Shown here piece by piece: positions 5,706 through 51,098 of a stretch of 64,000 nucleotides of DNA (the first letter of the stretch is position 1; each line of letters begins with the position of its first letter). The notes beneath the pieces are model-generated. The model did no database searches and had not been told where the DNA came from. It saw only the letters and a list, made by a program, of their open reading frames with translations. The position numbers were made by a program, and so were the translations under genes. Origin of the DNA: an uncultured Bacilli bacterium (GTDB taxonomy: Bacteria > Bacillota_I > Bacilli_A > RF39 > UBA660); assembly GCA_910583745.1 (NCBI GenBank), contig CAJTZC010000004.1, positions 21,548-85,547 on the forward strand, given 5' to 3'.

Positions 5706-8700
5706 TTAATTATTTTTCTTTTTTATAATGAAGTAACCTGCTCCACCAGCAATTACTATTGCGGCTGCACCAATTGCATATATTATGACATTTGAATTTT
5801 TCTCTTCTGTTGAGGATGTATCGATGTCACTCTTGTCTGTATTGTCTTGGTTTGGCGTTGTCGATTTGTATGCAACGATGAATTTTCCTAATCCTTGGTT
5901 CGTAAATATTACTTCGTTGCCGACGACTCTAGAATTTAATTTGACCACACTACCATCGTCTCTGACGACATAGATGGCTTCAAATGTTTTGTTAGGGTCC
6001 AATTTTATGGTTTGCTCGATGAACTCTGCTGATAGGTCTATCTTTTGGTTATCTTTCGTTTGTAATGAAAGTTCAAATATTTCACTATCCTTACCATAAC
6101 GATTTATCTGCGCTTCGCTTAATTCGAGTTTCTTATAATCTAAGGTTGCGTCCTCATATTTTTCCAATATTTCATTCGGTATTTTGATATTTACGTTTCC
6201 ATTTGTCATATCGCTGTGAGACTCTTCTGGTTCACTCGGAGTTGTCGGTTTGTCTGTATTAGGCTTGCTAGGATTTGTCGGTTTGCTTGGCTTTTCCTCT
6301 GGTTTCTCTTCCGGTTTTGTTTCGTTTTCATTATCGCCAGGCTCAGTTTCACCTTCGTTGTCTCCCGGTTTTTCTACAGGTTTTTGTTCTATCCAGGTTA
6401 CAACTGCAGTCGCATATCCTTTGTTTCCGGCTCTATCCACGAATTCGAATGTATATTCGGCATTTTCTTTGAATGTATATGTAGATTCGCCATTTCCCAA
6501 TATCGTGACCTCTTCGCTCGGTTTTAATGTGGCTGTGACAGGTCCTTCTGTTGGATTTTGTGTGCTATATTCGATTGTGGCTGTTGGAGCTTCTTTGTCG
6601 ATCCAGTCGACTGTGACGGTACTGCTTCCCGTGTTGCCTACTCTATCGACAAATTCGAATGTGAACTCTCCATTTTCAGTAAAAGCATATGTCGTCTTGC
6701 CGTCGTTGTTAGTAACGGTTACTTCTTCACTCGGTTTCAAAGTTGCAACGACATCTTTGTTCGTCCAATCTTGCGTATTGAATTCGAACTCTGCTGTAGG
6801 TGCTTCTTTGTCAATCCAATCGACTGTGACAGGAATGATGCCGTCGTATCCATTTTCATCTTTGTATTGGAAATTGAAGGTTTCATTCTGTGTAAATGTG
6901 TATTCGTTGCTCGCATTGTTATTGAAGATTCTGTATCCCTCTTCTAGTTTTAGAGTTACTTTTACGTCTTGGTTTGTCAAATTTGTCGTAGAAAAATTGA
7001 GTTCATACGTAGGGACTTTTGAAATCCAATTTACTGTTACTGTTGCTGATCCAGGATTTCCTGCTTTGTCGACGAATTCAAATGTAAATTCTCCGTTCTT
7101 TGTGAAAGTGTACGTGTTTTTTCCACCATTGTTGGTAATCGTGACTTCTTCACTAGGAACTAAAGTGGCAACGACTTCTCCGTCAGTCAAATGAACCGTA
7201 TTGAATTCAAATTCTGCAGTTGGAGCTTCCGTATCTATCCAATCGACTGTTATCGTCGTCGAACCTACATTGCCTAATGCATCTTGGAATTCTAGTACTG
7301 TCGTTCCGTTTTCTAGGAACGTGAGCGTTTTGCTACCATCTGTCGGATTTGTAGCCAATTGAACGTCTGTCGATAAGATGGTGATGTCGTTTTTATCGAA
7401 CGTAATCGTTGCGACGACGTTTTCGTTTGTAATTTCCGTTGTACTGAATTGTACTGTCGCAGTCGGCGCGGTTTTATCAATCCAGTCGACTTTTGCCGTA
7501 GCGCTTCCCTTGTGTCCGTTTTTGTCGACGAATTCGAACGTGAATTCTCCGTTTTCTGTGAAGGTATATGTCTTTTTGCCGTCGTTGTTTGTCACTGTGA
7601 TTGGTCTATTTTCATCGACTAATTCTGCTATAACGTCTTTATTTGTCGTTTTAATTATGTTGTAGTTGATTTCGGCAGTAGGATTTTCGCTCGCAGAAGG
7701 GTCTTCGTAAAGGTTTATCAACGCGATGGAGAAGAAATGTTGTAGACCTGACTCGTAGACAGATGGGCAATTAATTCTTACATATTTGGCTAGAACTGGA
7801 CTGTCAAATGTGATTTTTTTCAAATTACCGTTATTGCCTAGATTGCTTTTTGTAGCAGCAAGTTCCCAATTTGTTCCGTCCATACTAATATAGATATCCA
7901 ATCGACTCGCTTTACCTGATGGGTAGTTTCCGAGTGCAGTGGTTGCTCTTGCATCTGGGACGTAATCGAGTTCAGAAACATATCTAGGCTTATCGAGTTC
8001 TATAGTTGCATAGGCAGGGATATATTTTTGTCCTAAACCTTGCTTATTGTAGTGACTATGCCATGCAGTATTCGTATTCCCATCGAGTATATTGTCTTTG
8101 TCTCCTCCACTTGTACCCGATACTGCAATGACATTTAGTTTGTCTCTCGTTATGTAACGATGAGATTCGGAAGATGTGTTCGTAGTAAATGTGAAATATA
8201 CTGGATCACTCGTCGTATAGACGTCTGTTGCAAGCATTCTTACATAAACTTTGACATCTCCTTTAAAGATTGGATTTGTGTCTGCAAAAGAGTTCCATTC
8301 GTCATTTGGGTCTAGTGTCCATTGCATATTGTCGGTTGTTCCCATGAGTCGGTTTTCCAAATCATCTTTCGACACTGTATTACTAGGGAAGACACCTTTC
8401 TTTATATCAATTGTGTAAATATTCTCTTCTGTCATAGGTAATCCAGTAATGTGGATTTTAATGTCATTATCTGGTGAAATGCTATCTAATTGCTCTTTGG
8501 TCAGTTGTGCGGCATGTTCGTAGCAAGGAATCCATGTGTTGCCACCGTCTAGACTGTAAGTCCAGCTGACTTGAGCACTCTGTAATTGCTTAGATAGTAC
8601 GATTTGTCCAGCGTTAGCTCCATCGAATGAGAATGTTGCTACTCTAGAATCTACTATTCCTAAAATTGCATTTGCAATAACAGGGACTTCCTTATAGTAT

Positions 8701-10736
8701 AGTGTGTCTTTTGCGGTCGCTTTGGTCGCTTTTCTCAAAGTCTCATCTTGTAACATCATCAGTCTACTGCGATATCCCAGAGAAGTGATTTTCGAACCAA
8801 TTCTTCTCGTCAAATCATACATCGGTAAAGGATAATATGTGTAATGTTCAGCGATTTCTTCTGCTAATTTAATCAAATCTTCTTCTGTTTTTGCACTGTC
8901 TGTTATGTATAGATTTACAAGTCCAATCCACGCATCAAGATTTATTATTTCTTCTTTTAAAGCGTCTCTGTAGATTTGCTCTAATTTCTTTTTATCATTT
9001 TTGTAGACATCTTCGAGAAGCATTATCATCTGGGCTTTTTCATATTTTTCATATTCGTTTTGGGCATCTTGTGAAAGCAAAAGGTATGAACCAGGTTGTA
9101 TAGCACCATTGTTGGTTGCATATCTCGTTCCCCAGCCGTTGATACCAGCGCCACTGGTGTTTGCCCATCCAGTTGTCACAACACTGTTGGCCAATTGCCA
9201 AGCAAATTTTCCGCCTCCAGCATTATAGAGATATACATAAGCTGCGTGTCTTGGTTGTCCTACTACTCGAGCAGGATATCCCCAAACGCCGTAAAGATTG
9301 GCTGCGGTTTTTGATAATCCACCACAGACTGCACCTTCTTCGAATACTATCCAAAGTTTTGGTTTACCCGCTTGGTAGGTAATGTTATATTTTGAAAGAT
9401 TGTATTTTTGGTCCCATTTTGCGTAGTTTGCTTGGCTATAGTATTGAGGCCTATAATAACTATACGAAGTGGTGTATGTTATATATTTGTATGGATTAAA
9501 ACGCTCGTTCACAGCATATTTTTTCGAATAATCGTGTAACCACAGTATTTCTTCGTCATCGATGTTAGTAGCCATCACACCGCGCATCTCATCGATTGTA
9601 TAGCTTTCAAACATCGCATTATTTAATTCTCCATTTAAGTGCATGTCTTTGTATATTTGGTATCGGATAGTGGCATTTGAAAACTGACTATTATTTATCC
9701 ATAACGGTATGTTTGTAGAATGTGTCAATGAGAGAGACAGCATCATTTTTAGGTATAAATCTTTGTATTTTGTTCCTAATGCTGTTTCAGTCTCGTTCGA
9801 TAAATCTTCTCTATATGTATGGTATAAGTCGCTTAATACTTGTAGAGCCCTCTCATACGTTCCATTTGGTTTTCCACCAATCGTCCATAGTCGGAGTGCT
9901 TCTTCGTTGTTGATGAACCAATCAAACGTTTCCACATTTTTAGGGTTCGCTTCTAAGAAAGAGCGAAGTTGGTATTGTCCCATTCTTTTTATGAAGGTTC
10001 TCTGGAGTAAAACGAGTTTTAAATCTCCTTCGACTGTGCCAGAACGGTAGTTCTCTTTAATGATTTTGTCAAATTCTTCTACTGTCGTCATGACATTGTC
10101 GTTGTAACCCTCTTTTACCAGTTTGGCATCTCCCCATACTGCATGGTCGTTTCCATTGCTACCATTATCATTTACATAGAGTCTAATGTAGTTGGCATCT
10201 CTAATATCGATTTTAACTTTAACAGCACTATTGACACCTTTTAATGGAGTTGGATTTTCTTCTGTACGAAGGGTCCATTCTTTTCCGTCTTGTGACGTAT
10301 AAATATAGAATTTTGCTCCATTTCCGTTGTTGCCAGCACTTGTGTTAAGACCATAATATGTAGTGAAGTAATCGTAGTCTTTATAGTTGCTGATGTCATA
10401 TTCTACAGTAGAAGTAGCATGTGCAAATATTCCTTTTTTGACAATCGTCGCTGCTCCATCAATGTATAAAGCGAGGGATGCATTCGCATTTGTCTTATCC
10501 AATCCTAAAGTACCCCAGCCTACTTGCGCTTTGCTATACGGTATGTCAGAGAGATAAACTACATCTTCTGAAGCTTTAATATTGTAAGAGAACACCGGAC
10601 CTCTATCTATTTTTATCGTCTTCTCTGTTCCTACATATTGGCAGAAAGCGAAACTTCCATAAATAGCAGCTGTAAAAGATAAAATCAGTAAGCTATTTGC
10701 CAATGTCTTTTTAACTTTTAATTTTTTCTTTTTCAT
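5706..10736 (-). CDS. Large cell-surface protein with carbohydrate-binding (NPCBM-like and F5/8-type-C-like) domains, seven Ig-like tandem repeats, a Pro/Glu/Lys-rich stalk and a C-terminal TM anchor
   Basis: 1676 aa with an N-terminal signal peptide. The SDIPYSKAQVGWGTLGLDK motif is NPCBM-like. There are seven roughly 85-aa VDWIDKEAPTAEFEF-type repeats, a PEEKPEEKPSKP linker, and a terminal TM helix plus KKKNN. Confidence 0.75.
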   Translation of the reverse strand: MKKKKLKVKKTLANSLLILSFTAAIYGSFAFCQYVGTEKTIKIDRGPVFSYNIKASEDVVYLSDIPYSKAQVGWGTLGLDKTNANASLALYIDGAATIVKKGIFAHATSTVEYDISNYKDYDYFTTYYGLNTSAGNNGNGAKFYIYTSQDGKEWTLRTEENPTPLKGVNSAVKVKIDIRDANYIRLYVNDNGSNGNDHAVWGDAKLVKEGYNDNVMTTVEEFDKIIKENYRSGTVEGDLKLVLLQRTFIKRMGQYQLRSFLEANPKNVETFDWFINNEEALRLWTIGGKPNGTYERALQVLSDLYHTYREDLSNETETALGTKYKDLYLKMMLSLSLTHSTNIPLWINNSQFSNATIRYQIYKDMHLNGELNNAMFESYTIDEMRGVMATNIDDEEILWLHDYSKKYAVNERFNPYKYITYTTSYSYYRPQYYSQANYAKWDQKYNLSKYNITYQAGKPKLWIVFEEGAVCGGLSKTAANLYGVWGYPARVVGQPRHAAYVYLYNAGGGKFAWQLANSVVTTGWANTSGAGINGWGTRYATNNGAIQPGSYLLLSQDAQNEYEKYEKAQMIMLLEDVYKNDKKKLEQIYRDALKEEIINLDAWIGLVNLYITDSAKTEEDLIKLAEEIAEHYTYYPLPMYDLTRRIGSKITSLGYRSRLMMLQDETLRKATKATAKDTLYYKEVPVIANAILGIVDSRVATFSFDGANAGQIVLSKQLQSAQVSWTYSLDGGNTWIPCYEHAAQLTKEQLDSISPDNDIKIHITGLPMTEENIYTIDIKKGVFPSNTVSKDDLENRLMGTTDNMQWTLDPNDEWNSFADTNPIFKGDVKVYVRMLATDVYTTSDPVYFTFTTNTSSESHRYITRDKLNVIAVSGTSGGDKDNILDGNTNTAWHSHYNKQGLGQKYIPAYATIELDKPRYVSELDYVPDARATTALGNYPSGKASRLDIYISMDGTNWELAATKSNLGNNGNLKKITFDSPVLAKYVRINCPSVYESGLQHFFSIALINLYEDPSASENPTAEINYNIIKTTNKDVIAELVDENRPITVTNNDGKKTYTFTENGEFTFEFVDKNGHKGSATAKVDWIDKTAPTATVQFSTTEITNENVVATITFDKNDITILSTDVQLATNPTDGSKTLTFLENGTTVLEFQDALGNVGSTTITVDWIDTEAPTAEFEFNTVHLTDGEVVATLVPSEEVTITNNGGKNTYTFTKNGEFTFEFVDKAGNPGSATVTVNWISKVPTYELNFSTTNLTNQDVKVTLKLEEGYRIFNNNASNEYTFTQNETFNFQYKDENGYDGIIPVTVDWIDKEAPTAEFEFNTQDWTNKDVVATLKPSEEVTVTNNDGKTTYAFTENGEFTFEFVDRVGNTGSSTVTVDWIDKEAPTATIEYSTQNPTEGPVTATLKPSEEVTILGNGESTYTFKENAEYTFEFVDRAGNKGYATAVVTWIEQKPVEKPGDNEGETEPGDNENETKPEEKPEEKPSKPTNPSKPNTDKPTTPSEPEESHSDMTNGNVNIKIPNEILEKYEDATLDYKKLELSEAQINRYGKDSEIFELSLQTKDNQKIDLSAEFIEQTIKLDPNKTFEAIYVVRDDGSVVKLNSRVVGNEVIFTNQGLGKFIVAYKSTTPNQDNTDKSDIDTSSTEEKNSNVIIYAIGAAAIVIAGGAGYFIIKKKNN
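6400..7700 (-). repeat. Intragenic tandem repeat array (about 7 x 255 bp) encoding Ig-like repeats
   Basis: The repeated protein motif VDWIDK(E/T)APTA.. is visible seven times. It also creates a long antisense ORF artefact at 6250..7194. Confidence 0.6.
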
Positions 10737-11322: not shown

Positions 11323-11346
11323 CATTCTGGTGGAGGATGTGGGATT
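11323..11346. repeat. attL core copy (displaced 3' fragment of tRNA-Ala)
   Basis: Identical to 51017-51040. Confidence 0.8.
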
Positions 11347-11481: not shown

Positions 11482-11967
11482 ATGAAATGCAAAAACTTAA
11501 AAATTGAATCAAAAAAAGGCACTAAAAAAGGATACTGTAAACTGCATGATAAAGAGGTATCTTTATTCTGCAATGAATGCCCTTTTGAAGTTAAATATGA
11601 TATAGAAAAAATAAAAAGAAAGACTAAACAATATAAACCTATCAAAAAACGGTCTAACAAGCTCGCCAAAGCTGAAAAAGAACGTTTTAGTATAATCTAT
11701 CAAGATTTAACTAAATGTTGCGTAGAGAACTGTTTAACACCGTATTTTGGGGTACAAAAAAACGAAGTCTTTGAAGGTTCTTATAGACAAGCTTCGATTG
11801 AGTATGGTTTAGTATGCCCATTTTGCGTTAATTGTCACAAGAGATTCCACAAAGACCGAGAATTTGCTCTATATTATAAGAGACTATTTCAGGATAGATT
11901 CATAGAGTTATATTCTAGAGATTTATTTATGAGCATATTTAAAATGGATTATCATTATCGAAATTAA
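11482..11967 (+). CDS. Cys-rich putative zinc-binding protein (161 aa), function unknown
   Basis: Multiple CxxC-like pairs (CNEC, CPFC..C..H). First gene inside attL and the only plus-strand gene at this end. Confidence 0.5.
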   Translation: MKCKNLKIESKKGTKKGYCKLHDKEVSLFCNECPFEVKYDIEKIKRKTKQYKPIKKRSNKLAKAEKERFSIIYQDLTKCCVENCLTPYFGVQKNEVFEGSYRQASIEYGLVCPFCVNCHKRFHKDREFALYYKRLFQDRFIELYSRDLFMSIFKMDYHYRN

Positions 11968-11976
11968 TCTACTGTT

Positions 11977-12015
11977 AAAAACAAAAAATTCTCACAACTG
12001 GACTATGTGTGAGAA
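11977..12015 (-). terminator. Rho-independent terminator for the 12051-13146 module
   Basis: On the minus strand, the hairpin TTCTCACA-N10-TGTGAGAA is followed by TTTTTTGTTTTT. Confidence 0.5.
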
Positions 12016-12050: not shown

Positions 12051-12602
12051 TTAAATGCTTTTTAAGTTGTTCAAATTCCAACTATTATTTTTTTCTTTTT
12101 CGTAGATTATTTCTTTTTTCATTCTTATAATTTTTCCATCGATATTTAAGTCAGCCACAATTCCTAAATGAAAAAAGTCTATTAAAATAATTTTTAGTTT
12201 ACTGTTATTATTATAAATATAAAATTGGAATCTTTTTTTATCCCTGTGTTTTACTTTAAAAATATTTTGTAAATCCTTTTTTGTATATTTATGACGATAG
12301 CCTATATTAATAATATCCAATAACCTTTTAGCGGCAGGTTCTGTATAAGTGATTTCGTCCATAGGCTCAAAGTCGTCATCAAAAAAATCATAATTATCAG
12401 CGCTTGCATCTTTGACATATTCTTCTAATTTTTTATATAATTCGTTTTCACTAGTTTTAACAAAGTTCGTAAAAAATAGATTAGGGTCATTAAATGAGTT
12501 CAAAGAATTGCCGAAATCAAAACTATCATATTCTTCTTTTGAAAATTTTGTTTTATTAGAATTAAATCTATTTTGGCGACGACTTTTACGAATTTTTGGC
12601 AT
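12051..12602 (-). CDS. Unknown 183-aa protein translationally coupled to the Panacea-domain gene; candidate toxin/effector
   Basis: Overlaps the upstream gene by 17 nt. Basic N-terminus, acidic middle, no recognisable family. Confidence 0.5.
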   Translation of the reverse strand: MPKIRKSRRQNRFNSNKTKFSKEEYDSFDFGNSLNSFNDPNLFFTNFVKTSENELYKKLEEYVKDASADNYDFFDDDFEPMDEITYTEPAAKRLLDIINIGYRHKYTKKDLQNIFKVKHRDKKRFQFYIYNNNSKLKIILIDFFHLGIVADLNIDGKIIRMKKEIIYEKEKNNSWNLNNLKSI

Positions 12603-13146
12603 ATTCTCTTATTATTTCTTCTTTTGGAATTTCTGCATTATGAAAAATATTATTTTTGTTAAAATGTTTTTTCCAACATTTATCCTCATGAGAAATCTCT
12701 ACAAGTTTAAAATCATTTACAGGCAAAACATCATCTAAAATTCCGTTAATAAATTCCTGAACATAATCCATTCCATTAAAGAGATTACTATTTTTATAAT
12801 TTGATAATTCTTTTGCTTTATCAACGTTATATACATCTGGTATAACGGGGCCATATACCCATGCTTCAATAGTATTATCAAAAAGATATTCACTATAATT
12901 TAAATCTATTTCTTTTTTTGAATGCCCTTTTGATTTCCTGATAAAGCCGCCCCAATAACCAAAACAAAAATACAAAGCTTTTTGCAATTTTAACGGAGAT
13001 ATGGGTTTATTAAATTTTTCTTCATAATATTCAGAAATATATACCCCTAATTCTTTCGCATCTACTAAGCCTTTCATACCATTACTCCCTCCACCAGTTA
13101 TAGAATACCATAAATTTTTAAGATTTTCCATAAATTTTTGTGTCAA
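12586..13146 (-). CDS. Panacea-domain (DUF4065, PanA/SocA-like) protein; putative antitoxin
   Basis: Motifs LKLQKALYFCFGYW and AWVYGPVIPDVY match the Panacea domain consensus. TTG start with RBS AAGGGAG. Confidence 0.6.
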   Translation of the reverse strand: MTQKFMENLKNLWYSITGGGSNGMKGLVDAKELGVYISEYYEEKFNKPISPLKLQKALYFCFGYWGGFIRKSKGHSKKEIDLNYSEYLFDNTIEAWVYGPVIPDVYNVDKAKELSNYKNSNLFNGMDYVQEFINGILDDVLPVNDFKLVEISHEDKCWKKHFNKNNIFHNAEIPKEEIIREYAKNS

Positions 13147-13175
13147 GTGACAACACTCCCTTTTCGTTTTATTTT

Positions 13176-13203
13176 ACATTATATGTGTGTCGAATTATGT
13201 CAA
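13176..13203 (-). promoter_or_regulatory. Candidate promoter (TTGACA ... TATAAT/TAATGT) for the Panacea module
   Basis: Minus-strand -35 TTGACA at 13198-13203 and -10 at 13176-13183, immediately after the lysis-operon terminator. Confidence 0.35.
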
Positions 13204-13217
13204 ACTGTGTCGAAGCA

Positions 13218-13244
13218 CAAAAAAAGACTCGGATTTCTCCGAGT
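13218..13244 (-). terminator. Rho-independent terminator ending the late/lysis operon
   Basis: The perfect 8-bp hairpin ACTCGGAG-AA-ATCCGAGT is followed by T7 on the minus strand. Confidence 0.6.
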
Positions 13245-13266: not shown

Positions 13267-14022
13267 TTATTGGTTTGAATATAGTTTGATGTTATCAGTA
13301 TTCATCGCAGCCCAAACTTGACCACGAGCACTAAGAACTGCACGATTATCGACAAGTTCAGTAATCGTGTAATACTCATCATATTGAATTAACTTTGTTC
13401 CATAAAAATCAACTTTTTTTATCGCGACCACTTTATCGCCTACTCTAAAAGTCGTTTTTTGAGGTTCTACGGGCTCTTTTGCATCTTCACTAGTATTTAC
13501 ACTATAATCATATTTTGGACGCCCATAGCCCACGATAGACGTTGAATTCAATGCATATTTTTTCTCTTTGACGCCGTTCACGGGGCTTCCTGTATTACCT
13601 TCAACAACATAGACATAGTTAGGATCTACTCTTACGATCAACCCTGTATGTGCGTATTTAGAAAAAAATACTTGGTCTCCAGGTTGAGGATTCGCAGTAT
13701 AGAACTGACCTTTCTGTTTATAGTATTGAGCCGAATATCCTACGCCTGCGCCACATGATTTAAGAGGTTGGCATAATAGTTCTAACGCTCTTGCGACGCC
13801 AAATGCTTGCACAAAGCACCAATCTACAAAAATGTCACACCACGAGTAACCGTTTTTCTTTCCATTGTAAAACCCCGAAATTTTATCGAGGTCTCTTGCA
13901 TACTTAGAATAATTACCGTTACCAGCGTTTGCGTTTTTGTCGTCTAGCTGGCTATTAGATTTTTTTTCGAGATAGCCGACTTCTTTTTTAGCTATTTCTA
14001 TTACTCTTTCGATTTCATTCAT
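13267..14022 (-). CDS. Endolysin with a CHAP peptidase domain and a C-terminal SH3-like cell-wall-binding region
   Basis: The Cys (SWCDIF) and His (YAHTGLIV..VVEGN) catalytic pair matches a CHAP domain. Last gene of the lysis cassette; its start overlaps the holin stop. Confidence 0.7.
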   Translation of the reverse strand: MNEIERVIEIAKKEVGYLEKKSNSQLDDKNANAGNGNYSKYARDLDKISGFYNGKKNGYSWCDIFVDWCFVQAFGVARALELLCQPLKSCGAGVGYSAQYYKQKGQFYTANPQPGDQVFFSKYAHTGLIVRVDPNYVYVVEGNTGSPVNGVKEKKYALNSTSIVGYGRPKYDYSVNTSEDAKEPVEPQKTTFRVGDKVVAIKKVDFYGTKLIQYDEYYTITELVDNRAVLSARGQVWAAMNTDNIKLYSNQ

Positions 14023-34878: not shown

Positions 34879-34954
34879 TTTGGCAGTCAATGTCAGACTC
34901 GAACTGACAACCTTCAGGTATTCGCCTGCTACTCTATCCGATTGAGCTAATTGA
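34879..34954 (-). tRNA. tRNA-like gene with a non-canonical anticodon arm (possible pseudo-tRNA or unusual tRNA)
   Basis: Perfect 7-bp acceptor stem (AGTCAAT/ATTGACT), a D arm, a T arm (GTCAG-TTCGAGT-CTGAC) and encoded CCA. The anticodon region GCAGGCGAATACCTGAA cannot form a 5-bp stem with a 7-nt loop. The best pairing is CAGG/CCTG with a 6-nt loop CGAAUA. Confidence 0.45.
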
Positions 34955-35009
34955 CTATAAGGCGTCCCTATCGGAATTGAACCGAAAATCTAGAATGACC
35001 ACAGGGACA

Positions 35010-35084
35010 TGTGGTTGCCCCTCGTGGATTCGAACCACGGAATATCAGAGTCAAAGTCTGATGCCTTACCACTTGGCTAAGGAG
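35010..35084 (-). tRNA. tRNA-Gln (anticodon UUG), phage-encoded
   Basis: Manual fold: acceptor TGCTCCT/AGGGGCA with U1:A72, anticodon stem TCAGA/TCTGA, loop CUUUGAC, T arm CGTGG-TTCGAAT-CCACG, encoded CCA. Confidence 0.8.
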
Positions 35085-35480
35085 CAATAAATGTATCTTA
35101 ATAGATAGTATACTAAAGCATGTACATTGACTGCATTACTTGTTATTCTATTTGCGCTAAAACATCACTGAATAACAATACGGTAGGAAGGTGACTTACT
35201 TCCTCGCAGTATTTACCATTTTCAACATGCATTTAGTACACTCCCTATTAAGTAGTGCTCATTTCATAAAGCTGGTATGAAATGAAAAAAAATAAAAAGG
35301 GGTTGGAATATTACTTGTGTGTAATGTTCCACCAAAAATGGAACCACTAGTGTATAGCGATTCCATTATAGAAATTATAGCACAAAAAAGTGGACATTTC
35401 AATCATTTTTTTTAAATAATTCAATTTCAAAAGTAAATTGAGAAAAACGAACAATATGTACAATTTAGTCTGACATTATT

Positions 35481-48512: not shown

Positions 48513-48540
48513 TTGAATTTGTCGCTGAACCGTGTTAATA
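48513..48540 (+). promoter_or_regulatory. Candidate repressor promoter TTGAAT-16-TAATAT
   Basis: -35 at 48513-48518 and -10 at 48535-48540, followed by RBS AAAGGGG and the ATG at 48564. Confidence 0.4.
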
Positions 48541-48563
48541 TAGTTATAGAAAGGGGAAAATTT

Positions 48564-49238
48564 ATGGAAAATGAAAAAGAAAAAACTCACATAGCAACTA
48601 ATTTAAAATATTTACGTGCTATAAATGGCAAGTCTTTAAACGATGTTGCTAATATTTGTGGTAAATCCGATGTCGCTGTTCATTATTGGGAAAATGGAAC
48701 TAGAGAGCCTAATGCAGTAGATATAGCAAAATTATCAAATTACTTCGATATTACTGTTGATGACTTATTGATAAAAGATTTACGTTTTGATAACGCTGAA
48801 TTTGTAGATATAAATACCGACACAGTGTCTATACCAGTGCTTGGTATCATTCGAGCCGGTATGCCTATTGAGGCACAAGAAAATATAATCGACTATGTCG
48901 ATATACCACGTGAATGGACGAAGGGCGGAAAACAGTTTTTTGGTTTAAAGATTAAAGGTAACAGCATGTCGCCAAAATACGCTTCAGGAGACACAGTAGT
49001 CTTTGAAAGTACTGAAGATTTTGAATATGCGAATAATAAAGATTCGTGCATTATGGTAAATGGCTTTGATGCTACTTTTAAGAAATTTAATATAAATCAA
49101 AGTGGTGTTACATTGACACCCTTGAATTTAGAAAATGAAGACGGGTACACTACTACATTTTATGATGTAGAACAAGTTAAAGAACTACCCGTTAAAGTAA
49201 TTGGAATCGCTAGAAGAAAGATTTCTGATATTGAATGA
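48564..49238 (+). CDS. CI-like repressor (XRE HTH plus S24 LexA-like peptidase domain)
   Basis: N-terminal HTH; C-terminal GNSMSP ... K is an S24 Ser/Lys autocleavage module. The start was chosen at the internal ATG with an RBS; the track ORF starts at 48513. Confidence 0.75.
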   Translation: MENEKEKTHIATNLKYLRAINGKSLNDVANICGKSDVAVHYWENGTREPNAVDIAKLSNYFDITVDDLLIKDLRFDNAEFVDINTDTVSIPVLGIIRAGMPIEAQENIIDYVDIPREWTKGGKQFFGLKIKGNSMSPKYASGDTVVFESTEDFEYANNKDSCIMVNGFDATFKKFNINQSGVTLTPLNLENEDGYTTTFYDVEQVKELPVKVIGIARRKISDIE

Positions 49239-49654: not shown

Positions 49655-50941
49655 TTGGAGGTAAAAATTATGGCGGTTTTTCCAGTGAAAAAATATAAAA
49701 CTGTAAAAGATGAAAACAGCAATAAAATACAAGTTCAAAAAACTAAAGAAGAATGGAATAAAGAGACTAAAAATGGAACGGCAACGTGGTATTTTGTTAA
49801 TAGGTACAAAGTTCATGATAAAGTAAAACAATATAAATCTGCTCTGTTTTCCCTCAAACGCGATGCAGAGACTGATGATGCACTTTTTAGATTAGACCCT
49901 ATAAAATACATAAGTGAACATAGCAAGCGAGCTAAAGTTGATGTTTGTAAAATCAATAACTATTCTAGTAAAAATTTAAATGACTATTTTGAGGATTTCT
50001 TTAGTTACAAGTTGAACTTCAATAGAGAAAGTACTGCTTACGACTATAAGAAATCATGGGACAATCATATATCGGATTTTTTTGTCGATAAGGAAATAAC
50101 ATTAGTAACAGTTCAAGAATGGTTTGAATATATGAACATTAAACAAAAGGTAGATGGTACATTTTATTCTACTCGAACAAAAAATAAGGTTCTTACTGCT
50201 CTAAGAGAATTTTGTGCTTATCTTGTTAAAAAAGGAAGGCTGGAAATGAACTTTGCTGAAGTAGTTGGAAATTTTGAAAATCCGAATGAAAACAAAAATG
50301 AAGAAAAAGAGATTAAATTTCAAACTGAAGAACAGTTTAATGAATTTATGGAAGTTGTTGATGACGAATTTTGGTATTCACTATTTAACTTTGCTTTTTG
50401 GCATGGTCCACGAATTGGAGAACAAAGAGCTCTTAAAATTAAAAATATTAATTTAGATAAAGATATTATAAAGTTTAGTCAAACGTTTTCTAAAAGCAAA
50501 AGTGGCGGTGAAAAGATTGGACCAATAAAAAATGGTTTAGTTCGTGAAATCGCTTTAGCACCACAGAGTAAACCTTATATTGAAAAATTAATTGCTATAT
50601 ATAAAAGAATGGATGGTTATTCCGACGAATGGTTTTTGTTTGGTGGACCGATTAATACAAATAAGAATAGGATAGAAAGAAAGTTGAATGTATACTACTC
50701 TAAACTTAAAACGATTCATTCAGATAAGAATATTAATCAGCTATCGCATCATGAATTTGGGCGGCATTCACATGCATCACATCTTCTTAATAAGGGTATA
50801 GAAAATGGTATGTATCTAGAGGAAGTTTTGTCTATGATTGCTACACGTCTTGGTGATACAATAGAAGTAATTAGAAGGACCTATGCACACCAATATGAAC
50901 ACAAAAACAACGATAAAATAAAAGACTTATTAAAATTATAG
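49655..50941 (+). CDS. int: Tyrosine integrase
   Basis: The C-terminal catalytic region (HEFGRHSHASHLL ... RRTYAH) fits the R..H..R..Y signature. Adjacent to attR and the tRNA. Confidence 0.85.
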   Translation: MEVKIMAVFPVKKYKTVKDENSNKIQVQKTKEEWNKETKNGTATWYFVNRYKVHDKVKQYKSALFSLKRDAETDDALFRLDPIKYISEHSKRAKVDVCKINNYSSKNLNDYFEDFFSYKLNFNRESTAYDYKKSWDNHISDFFVDKEITLVTVQEWFEYMNIKQKVDGTFYSTRTKNKVLTALREFCAYLVKKGRLEMNFAEVVGNFENPNENKNEEKEIKFQTEEQFNEFMEVVDDEFWYSLFNFAFWHGPRIGEQRALKIKNINLDKDIIKFSQTFSKSKSGGEKIGPIKNGLVREIALAPQSKPYIEKLIAIYKRMDGYSDEWFLFGGPINTNKNRIERKLNVYYSKLKTIHSDKNINQLSHHEFGRHSHASHLLNKGIENGMYLEEVLSMIATRLGDTIEVIRRTYAHQYEHKNNDKIKDLLKL

Positions 50942-51016: not shown

Positions 51017-51040
51017 CATTCTGGTGGAGGATGTGGGATT
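51017..51040. repeat. attR core copy, forming the 3' end of tRNA-Ala
   Basis: Identical to 11323-11346. Confidence 0.8.
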
Positions 51041-51098
51041 CGAACCCGCGACCCCCTGCGTGCAGGGCAGGTGCTCTAGCCAGCTGAGCTAATCCCCC
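51022..51098 (-). tRNA. tRNA-Ala (anticodon UGC)
   Basis: Manual fold: acceptor GGGGGAU/AUCCUCC with a G3:U70 pair, anticodon stem CCUGC/GCAGG with loop CCUGCAC, T loop UUCGAAU, encoded CCA. Position 33 is C rather than U. There is one C-A mismatch in the T stem. Confidence 0.8.

Follow-up and report, generated by a model that had tools for sequence, protein, structure and literature searches.

Two overlapping minus-strand open reading frames (ORFs) of 186 and 183 amino acids (aa), the first with a TTG and the second with an ATG start, occupy one end of a prophage in an uncultured Bacilli bacterium (contig CAJTZC010000004.1, positions 21,548 to 85,547), a stretch of 64,000 nucleotides (nt) that was analysed as a whole and is referred to here as the window. 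The pair sits between the terminator of the lysis cassette and the prophage attachment (att) site, and its features, which make it a candidate toxin–antitoxin (TA) cassette, are as follows.

12586..13146, minus strand: panA, encoding a standalone Panacea (DUF4065) protein, the predicted antitoxin (186 aa from TTG 13146)
12051..12602, minus strand: panT-like partner gene, encoding the predicted toxin (183 aa)
12586..12602, minus strand: 17-nt overlap of the 3′ end of panA with the 5′ end of panT

Dozens of unrelated toxins are known as partners of Panacea antitoxins, and the corresponding toxin clusters mostly lack an assigned fold or mechanism. The assignment of the 12586..13146 product to this group had been made in an earlier note on this DNA, which proposed a profile check, and it holds: the Pfam model PF13274 (SocA_Panacea) matches the protein at 33.0 bits, above the curated gathering cut-off of 25.7 (E 1.3e-7), and the two peptides quoted at the time, LKLQKALYFCFGYW and AWVYGPVIPDVY, are both present. 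The ORF coordinates, the minus strand and the 17-nt overlap given in that note were likewise confirmed, as was its description of a partner protein with a basic N-terminus (MPKIRKSRRQNRFNSNKTKFSK) and an acidic core (the stretch DNYDFFDDDFEPMDE). PanA is further matched by phrog_1281 at E 5.9e-27, PF13274 recurs in nearly all of 167 PanA homologues, and no extra domain was detected in PanA with Pfam or NCBIfam. The NCBIfam SocA model NF047745 gives a partial match of 39.9 bits as compared with an equivalog cut-off of 190. Since the protein passes the Pfam threshold and stays far below this cut-off, it is best described as a Panacea protein and not as SocA. The resemblance to SocAB, a type VI TA system of Caulobacter, consists in the Panacea domain that SocA carries and in the partial match of PanA to the SocA model; in contrast to that system, neither a SocB-type toxin nor a ClpXP-adaptor function is indicated here, and the partner is unrelated.

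Curated libraries are silent on the partner, with no match in Pfam, PADLOC or NCBIfam and only a non-significant one in PHROGs (E 0.048). A word-index protein search returned only seven relatives, a locus scan with alignment A1 yielded one GTDB locus and zero IMG/VR loci, and no relative was found among GenBank phages by blastn of the region or tblastn of the partner. When 1.84 billion cluster representatives were searched exhaustively with an HMMER profile, 105 representatives of the partner family were detected (50% identity clusters, E <= 1e-3), the majority of them full length at 175-200 aa. Pfam, applied to 87 members, revealed chance singletons and no recurring family, and sequence-profile searches of PDB chains with profiles A1 and A2 returned noise only. 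Judged by these searches, the partner is part of a real, diverse and uncurated family and not an orphan. Several residues are nearly invariant over 165 members: D142 and H145 are conserved in 100%, S36 and N46 in 99% and F44 in 98%, followed by Y167 (92%), R93 (91%), K116 (82%) and K118 (72%).

The association of the two genes was assessed in 61 IMG/VR and 80 metagenome loci fetched with the PanA alignment and, in total, in 189 sequences. A partner-family ORF lies immediately downstream on the same strand in 143 of 168 hits to the PanA subfamily; nine of the remaining hits run off the contig and 16 lack a partner-family ORF, several of these in fact having divergent or contig-truncated partners. 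Conversely, members of the partner family are always found directly downstream of a PanA gene in the 189 sequences, and none occurs without PanA, the loci fetched from the partner side included. Three partner-side IMG/VR scans with tight sub-alignments recovered the same contigs and a single new one, in which PanA again lies upstream. Every partner-selected locus has a Panacea gene immediately upstream, and the PanA-selected loci (53-62% identity) carry downstream genes for 184-186 aa that overlap panA by 17 nt (L016-L019) or 14 nt (L013) and are assigned to the partner family by its hidden Markov model (HMM). Viral, metagenome and genome contigs all contribute to the 103 unique pairs, a Bacilli metagenome-assembled genome (MAG) and Lactococcus phage bIL312 being among the sources; about 90% of the pairs overlap by 14, 17, 20, 23, 26 or 29 nt, that is, in the same relative frame. 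In the window, the partner ATG is built from the last bases of conserved PanA Tyr-Ala codons, an arrangement that, with its 17-nt overlap, implies translational coupling. Divergence is faster in the partner, which has a mean pairwise identity of 27% as against 49% for PanA, and the identity matrices of the two proteins correlate with r = 0.89, a value reached by 0 of 999 Mantel permutations. These figures indicate that PanA and its partner are co-inherited without partner swapping.

The surroundings of the pair are far less constant. Upstream flanking genes encode CHAP, M23 or M15 endolysins, NAGPA or a LexA-like helix-turn-helix (HTH) protein, and downstream flanks comprise an integrase, a beta-lactamase-like gene, HipA or a Cys-rich ORF. 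Partner-selected loci were found at a prophage end after a CHAP-LysM endolysin, at a non-phage chromosomal site in a Bacilli MAG and on short contigs, and the PanA-selected loci follow M23 or M15 endolysins and adjoin integrases, one of them being located in a LexA-HTH/HipA island. The position as a prophage moron in many unrelated prophages, together with the occurrence at non-prophage sites, argues for an autonomous mobile two-gene unit. The non-prophage island at L013:2278-4823, also seen in L012, L014 and L015, comprises, in this order, genes for a 78-aa LexA-type HTH protein, for PanA and for the partner, followed by an 80-aa ORF and by genes for a HipA_C kinase and a DUF87 ATPase, and has the appearance of a TA or defence gene cluster. 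At L017:5261-6144, an inserted TA-like DUF433/DUF5615 pair separates the PanA-partner pair from the Cys-rich ORF; the otherwise similar prophage end of L016 is devoid of this insertion, which suggests that the position is a hotspot for small cassettes. Homologues of the Cys-rich ORF follow directly after the pair in about 15 other loci, L016, L017, L019, L098, L140, L089 and L010 among them, and are absent from most. An obligate third component was therefore rejected as a role for this ORF.

The pattern of gene loss bears on the question of which of the two proteins is the toxin. In L012, L014 and L015, PanA is identical to that of L013, and the 562-bp partner region has been replaced by 15 bp. 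L107 retains only the last 29 codons of the partner gene, 97% identical to the intact gene of L108, and in L133, L134, L138 and L151 all that is left of it is the first 21 codons (95% identity to L139). Each of these loci has a full-length PanA. The partner has hence been destroyed in three independent events, and the converse was not seen: truncated PanA occurs only in L073 and L075, both of which are also without partner. Loss of the partner beside an intact PanA on three occasions, and never the reverse, points to a partner that is harmful when PanA is missing. The asymmetry at the same time argues against a reversal of roles, in which the Panacea protein would be harmful and the 183-aa protein would neutralize it. 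Such a reversal could draw on the report that three PanA proteins are toxic on over-expression in E. coli (PMC8832971); however, the intact PanA genes that persist without a partner in L012/14/15, L107 and L133/134/138/151 would be lethal if PanA were the toxin, and the order of antitoxin followed by toxin is the common one among PanAT systems (943 versus 325; PMC8832971). Reversed roles are accordingly considered highly improbable. That the two genes are truly toxin and antitoxin, with the partner in the toxic role, by contrast, appears quite likely from these comparisons. The central proposal of the earlier note, a PanA-like antitoxin with a coupled partner in moron position forming a candidate TA or abortive-infection cassette, survives these genomic tests, namely the 103 conserved pairs, the lack of solo partners and the asymmetric loss.

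The relation to published PanAT systems could be traced through a single phage. Kurata et al. (2022, PMC8832971) defined PanAT systems in silico by a Panacea domain in the antitoxin, genes no more than 100 nt apart, occurrence in at least two species and the absence of a conserved operon of more than three genes, and the 12586..13146/12051..12602 pair displays all four features. In a tblastn search of GenBank phages with PanA, the sole match was orf24 of Lactococcus phage bIL312. Its neighbour Orf25 (188 aa, with an orf24/orf25 overlap of 35 nt) is matched over nearly its full length (HMM positions 15-179; 40.6 bits, E 2.6e-14) by the partner-family HMM, in which the window's protein is included, and shares all the family motifs, KS, FTNF, KRL, LIDxxHL and Y..N; direct BLASTP of the partner against Orf25 is marginal (27% identity over 73 residues, E 0.002). 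The two systems have in common a standalone Panacea antitoxin, the order of antitoxin then toxin, overlapping genes (-35 nt in bIL312 and -17 nt here) and a location on a prophage. Orf24 and Orf25 (NP_076824.1/NP_076825.1) are listed in Dataset S1 of the same study as a predicted PanAT of cluster pT17/T16, with order A|T, gap -35 and the entry 'notest' (PMC8832971). At the superfamily level, the profile match makes the partner a distant member of T16. As Orf25 had already been listed as a predicted T16 PanT, any claim to novelty has to be reduced, and the word 'novel', by which the system had initially been described, was an overstatement: at the profile level, it belongs to the same family as a published predicted toxin cluster.

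The published T16 cluster comprises 12 rows, mostly from Bacilli, with members in Alkalibacterium, Mannheimia, Salinicoccus, Staphylococcus simiae, Vagococcus, Carnobacterium, Halolactibacillus, Streptococcus equi and three Lactobacillus species besides bIL312, and the sole HHpred remark made on it reads '50S ribosomal subunit (51.5%)' (PMC8832971). The family as delineated here differs in extent, with 105 representatives at 50% identity as opposed to 12 rows, and is centred on prophages of gut and rumen metagenomes. No later experimental study of the T16 toxin family came up in a literature search. Membership in T1, the largest PanT cluster and one labelled 'mRNase', was also considered and rejected, as hhalign of the partner-family alignment against the one T1 member compared, Salmonella phage Emek gp16 (YP_006560566.1), gave a probability of 0.1%.

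The fold of the partner was approached by structure prediction. A first AlphaFold model based on seven sequences was mediocre, with a predicted local distance difference test (pLDDT) score of 64, and is superseded by a model built from an 87-sequence alignment (pLDDT 96.1, predicted template modelling score 0.90). In the latter, an N-terminal extension (residues 1-77) of three strands and two helices precedes strand 81-83, helices 90-102 and 108-113, strands 114-119, 126-131 and 135-142, a small hairpin, and helices 163-170 and 177-182. Residues ~80-170 of the model appear to resemble, at a distance, the beta-alpha-alpha-beta-beta-beta-alpha core of the RelE/ParE superfamily (RelE, YoeB, YafQ, HigB, BrnT and ParE). 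The earlier statement that the protein has no recognizable family is thus borne out for curated libraries, but not for structure comparison, which suggests a distant likeness of this core to RelE/ParE. Structure comparison against BFVD brought up no annotated match to the partner model; the sole full-length structural match, the viral protein D7RWK8 (208 aa; TM-score 0.59, E 3.8e-5, 15% identity), probably represents another member of the partner family in a cultured phage. The resemblance to RelE/ParE has its limits: at 183 aa, and with a conserved, confidently modelled extension of ~80 residues, the partner exceeds the compact ~85-110 residues of RelE/ParE toxins, and no sequence-profile match to a RelE, ParE, HigB, YoeB or YafQ family was found in the Pfam, PDB-chain and RelE comparisons. 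That Panacea antitoxins can be paired with RelE-fold toxins is already established by the PanAT clusters T14 and T28, which are HigB/YoeB/ParE-like by HHpred, and by MqsR-type PanTs in Dataset S1 (PMC8832971). In contrast to the present family, which is unrecognizable by sequence, those toxins give high-probability HHpred/CDD matches and are of ordinary RelE size.

Assignment by eye places K116-x-K118 on the strand equivalent to RelE beta2, D142 at the end of beta4 with H145 after it, and Y167 in the C-terminal helix; S36, N46, D142 and H145 may cluster spatially in one active site. Small ribonuclease (RNase) toxins typically combine an acid/base pair with residues of basic and aromatic character. 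It is the putative D142/H145 pair, together with the basic and aromatic residues, that makes an endoribonuclease arresting translation the favoured activity, even though the identification of the toxin as an RNase is tentative and held at a little less than even confidence. Two other views of the same residues were weighed. The pair may be a genuine PanAT system whose toxin is not an RNase: it could be a gyrase poison like ParE, or S36/N46/D142-x-x-H145 could form a hydrolase or transferase centre of the Ser-His-Asp type with a different substrate; the acid/base, basic and aromatic residues typical of RNase toxins speak for the endoribonuclease instead, and an activity of another kind is regarded as unlikely. 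Similarly unlikely is the most far-reaching proposal, that of an enzymatic effector not recognized before, in which a RelE-like scaffold and an N-terminal module contributing S36 and N46 would build a composite site with D142/H145 whose activity or target is unlike those of known RelE/ParE toxins, PanA would act as a phage sensor, and the system would serve as a widespread form of abortive infection in prophages of gut Firmicutes.

The transcription signals around the pair and the elements that define its prophage setting are listed below.

13227..13244, minus strand: intrinsic terminator of the lysis cassette, found by a terminator scan (7-bp stem with 4 GC pairs, followed by CTTTTTTTGT)
13178..13203, minus strand: promoter-like element TTGACA-N14-TATAAT upstream of panA, found by exact pattern search
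11977..12015: hairpin and U-run between the convergent panT and Cys-rich ORF, found by RNA folding (stem of 9-10 bp, then UUUUUUGUUUUU)
13267..14022: CHAP endolysin gene (Pfam CHAP match and PHROG endolysin match), the upstream neighbour of panA
11482..11967, plus strand: Cys-rich ORF of 161 aa, convergent; phrog_7566 (function unknown) at E 9.1e-11
11323..11346: left att repeat, a 24-bp exact repeat (CATTCTGGTGGAGGATGTGGGATT) with its second copy at 51017-51040
48513..49238: CI-like HTH/S24 repressor, just inside the right prophage end
49655..50941: tyrosine integrase, just inside the right prophage end
51022-51098: tRNA-Ala, its 3′ end overlapped by the right att copy (51017-51040)

The terminator at 13227..13244 separates the module transcriptionally from the late operon and corresponds to the lysis-operon terminator that had been postulated upstream of the pair (13244-13227 in the direction of the minus strand). 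At the other end, the hairpin at 11977..12015 is a probable bidirectional terminator that closes the module. The claim of a terminator there is plausible, stem and U-run being present; the terminator scanner misses the structure because its loop is larger than 8 nt, and the fold z-score of the 91-nt stretch is only -1.0. Both hexamers of the TTGACA/TATAAT promoter proposed for the module are indeed perfect (13203-13178, minus strand), although the spacer of 14 nt departs from the canonical 16-18 and the site is consequently absent from the list of a consensus scanner set to 16-18 nt, so that the proposed promoter is borne out only in part. A 9-bp direct repeat (TTCGACACA) at 13206-13214 and 13186-13194 of the minus strand, with the copies 20 bp apart, brackets the -35 hexamer and fills the spacer of this element, and its placement makes it a possible operator; a CI operator was rejected, as the repeat does not recur near the prophage repressor. 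A further perfect sigma-70 consensus, TTGACA-18-TATAAT (12/12), lies in antisense orientation inside the partner gene (12412-12441, plus strand); the window has just one other perfect site. A family feature was rejected, since the 84 other partner genes examined do not share the antisense site, which could be either lineage-specific or due to chance in AT-rich coding DNA.

The translation start of PanA is ambiguous from sequence. In-frame alternatives exist at TTG 13146, preceded by AAGGGAG, at ATG 13131 and at ATG 13077: the second would give a 181-aa protein, the form found in public databases, and the third, preceded by the strong Shine-Dalgarno sequence GGAGGGAG, a 163-aa protein of about the length of most homologues.

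The prophage measures ~39.7 kb and is integrated at the tRNA-Ala gene, with a GC content of ~31% between the att repeats versus ~38-40% outside. The end of the module is ~700 bp away from the left att site. The att repeats, the tRNA-Ala overlap, and the integrase and CI-like repressor at the opposite end bear out the contention that the pair is located at a prophage extremity. Besides the CHAP endolysin gene, the upstream neighbours of the pair include genes of a small holin-like membrane protein and of an XhlA/hemolysin-like protein (Pfam, PHROG). The Cys-rich ORF is the sole gene between the module and the left att site and gives weak hints of an HNH-like and zinc-finger character. Immediately beyond the left att site, a host gene on the minus strand (5706-10736) encodes a surface protein of 1676 aa in which NPCBM and F5/F8 type C domains are combined with a C-terminal membrane anchor. 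Two tRNA genes reside inside the prophage on the minus strand (34881-34956 and 35012-35086); according to ARAGORN, one is a tRNA-Gln(ttg) and the other has an undetermined identity with an odd two-base anticodon '(aa)'.

Taken as a whole, the evidence favours, somewhat beyond an even chance, a PanAT-type (type II) TA cassette that is carried as a prophage moron and whose toxin may be a RelE-like RNase. Several observations weigh against it. No sequence link of the partner to solved structures or to Pfam toxin families was found, and hhalign against E. coli RelE produced no alignment, a comparison of low power given its single-sequence template. The 14-nt spacer of the promoter-like element, judged by its sequence, does not assure expression in the lysogen. 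The correlation between the two identity matrices would fit a complex of the two proteins, but is expected for any adjacent co-inherited genes and does not prove contact. A defence role finds no echo in PADLOC-DB v2, where neither PanA nor the partner nor the neighbouring ORF has a match at E <= 1. All T16 rows are marked 'notest' and have no fold assigned (PMC8832971), and 8 of the 25 PanTs picked for testing by Kurata et al. were not toxic in E. coli (PMC8832971). The last three of these points would suit a prophage accessory pair that is co-inherited but is no TA system at all, in which a non-toxic partner would act in superinfection exclusion or regulation, with PanA as its chaperone or sensor, and in which the very basic N-terminus of the partner could merely bind nucleic acid. 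Such a pair does not readily account for three independent deletions of the partner beside an intact PanA and none of the reverse kind, for a partner that is never found solo and whose tight translational coupling is conserved, or for enzyme-like invariant polar residues on a toxin-like fold; it is therefore deemed improbable. The comparative evidence suggests that the module is probably real and functional as a TA system.

As a PanAT-type TA cassette, the module might operate as follows. In the lysogen, the TTGACA-N14-TATAAT element would drive transcription of both genes, and their translation would be coupled. The partner would be the toxic effector, and PanA would bind and neutralize it directly, as has been reported for standalone Panacea antitoxins (PMC10440598). 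The toxin would consist of the ~80-residue N-terminal extension and the RelE/ParE-like core, with S36, N46, R93, K116, D142, H145 and Y167 forming the active site, and would act as an endoribonuclease on messenger RNA, possibly in a ribosome-dependent manner like RelE, thereby arresting translation. Release or activation of the toxin, be it by loss of the prophage, turnover of PanA or an infecting phage, would stop growth, and the growth stop would in turn lead to stabilization of the prophage or to abortive infection. Both of these roles are plausible, but it is doubtful that phage defence is the main one.

The cassette opens no new category of system, its toxin family having been predicted in 2022 and being expanded here. 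T16 is turned from a hypothetical list of 12 rows into a defined family of more than 100 sequence clusters, for which a structural model of high confidence is added, together with a hypothesis on catalysis (D142/H145 with S36, N46, R93, K116 and Y167), strict linkage, conserved gene overlap and a pattern of asymmetric decay that points to the partner as the toxin. Prophages of gut and rumen metagenomes commonly carry the cassette, with lysis genes on one side of it and the integrase on the other. Should it serve in phage defence or prophage stabilization, phage-host dynamics in gut and rumen communities would be affected.

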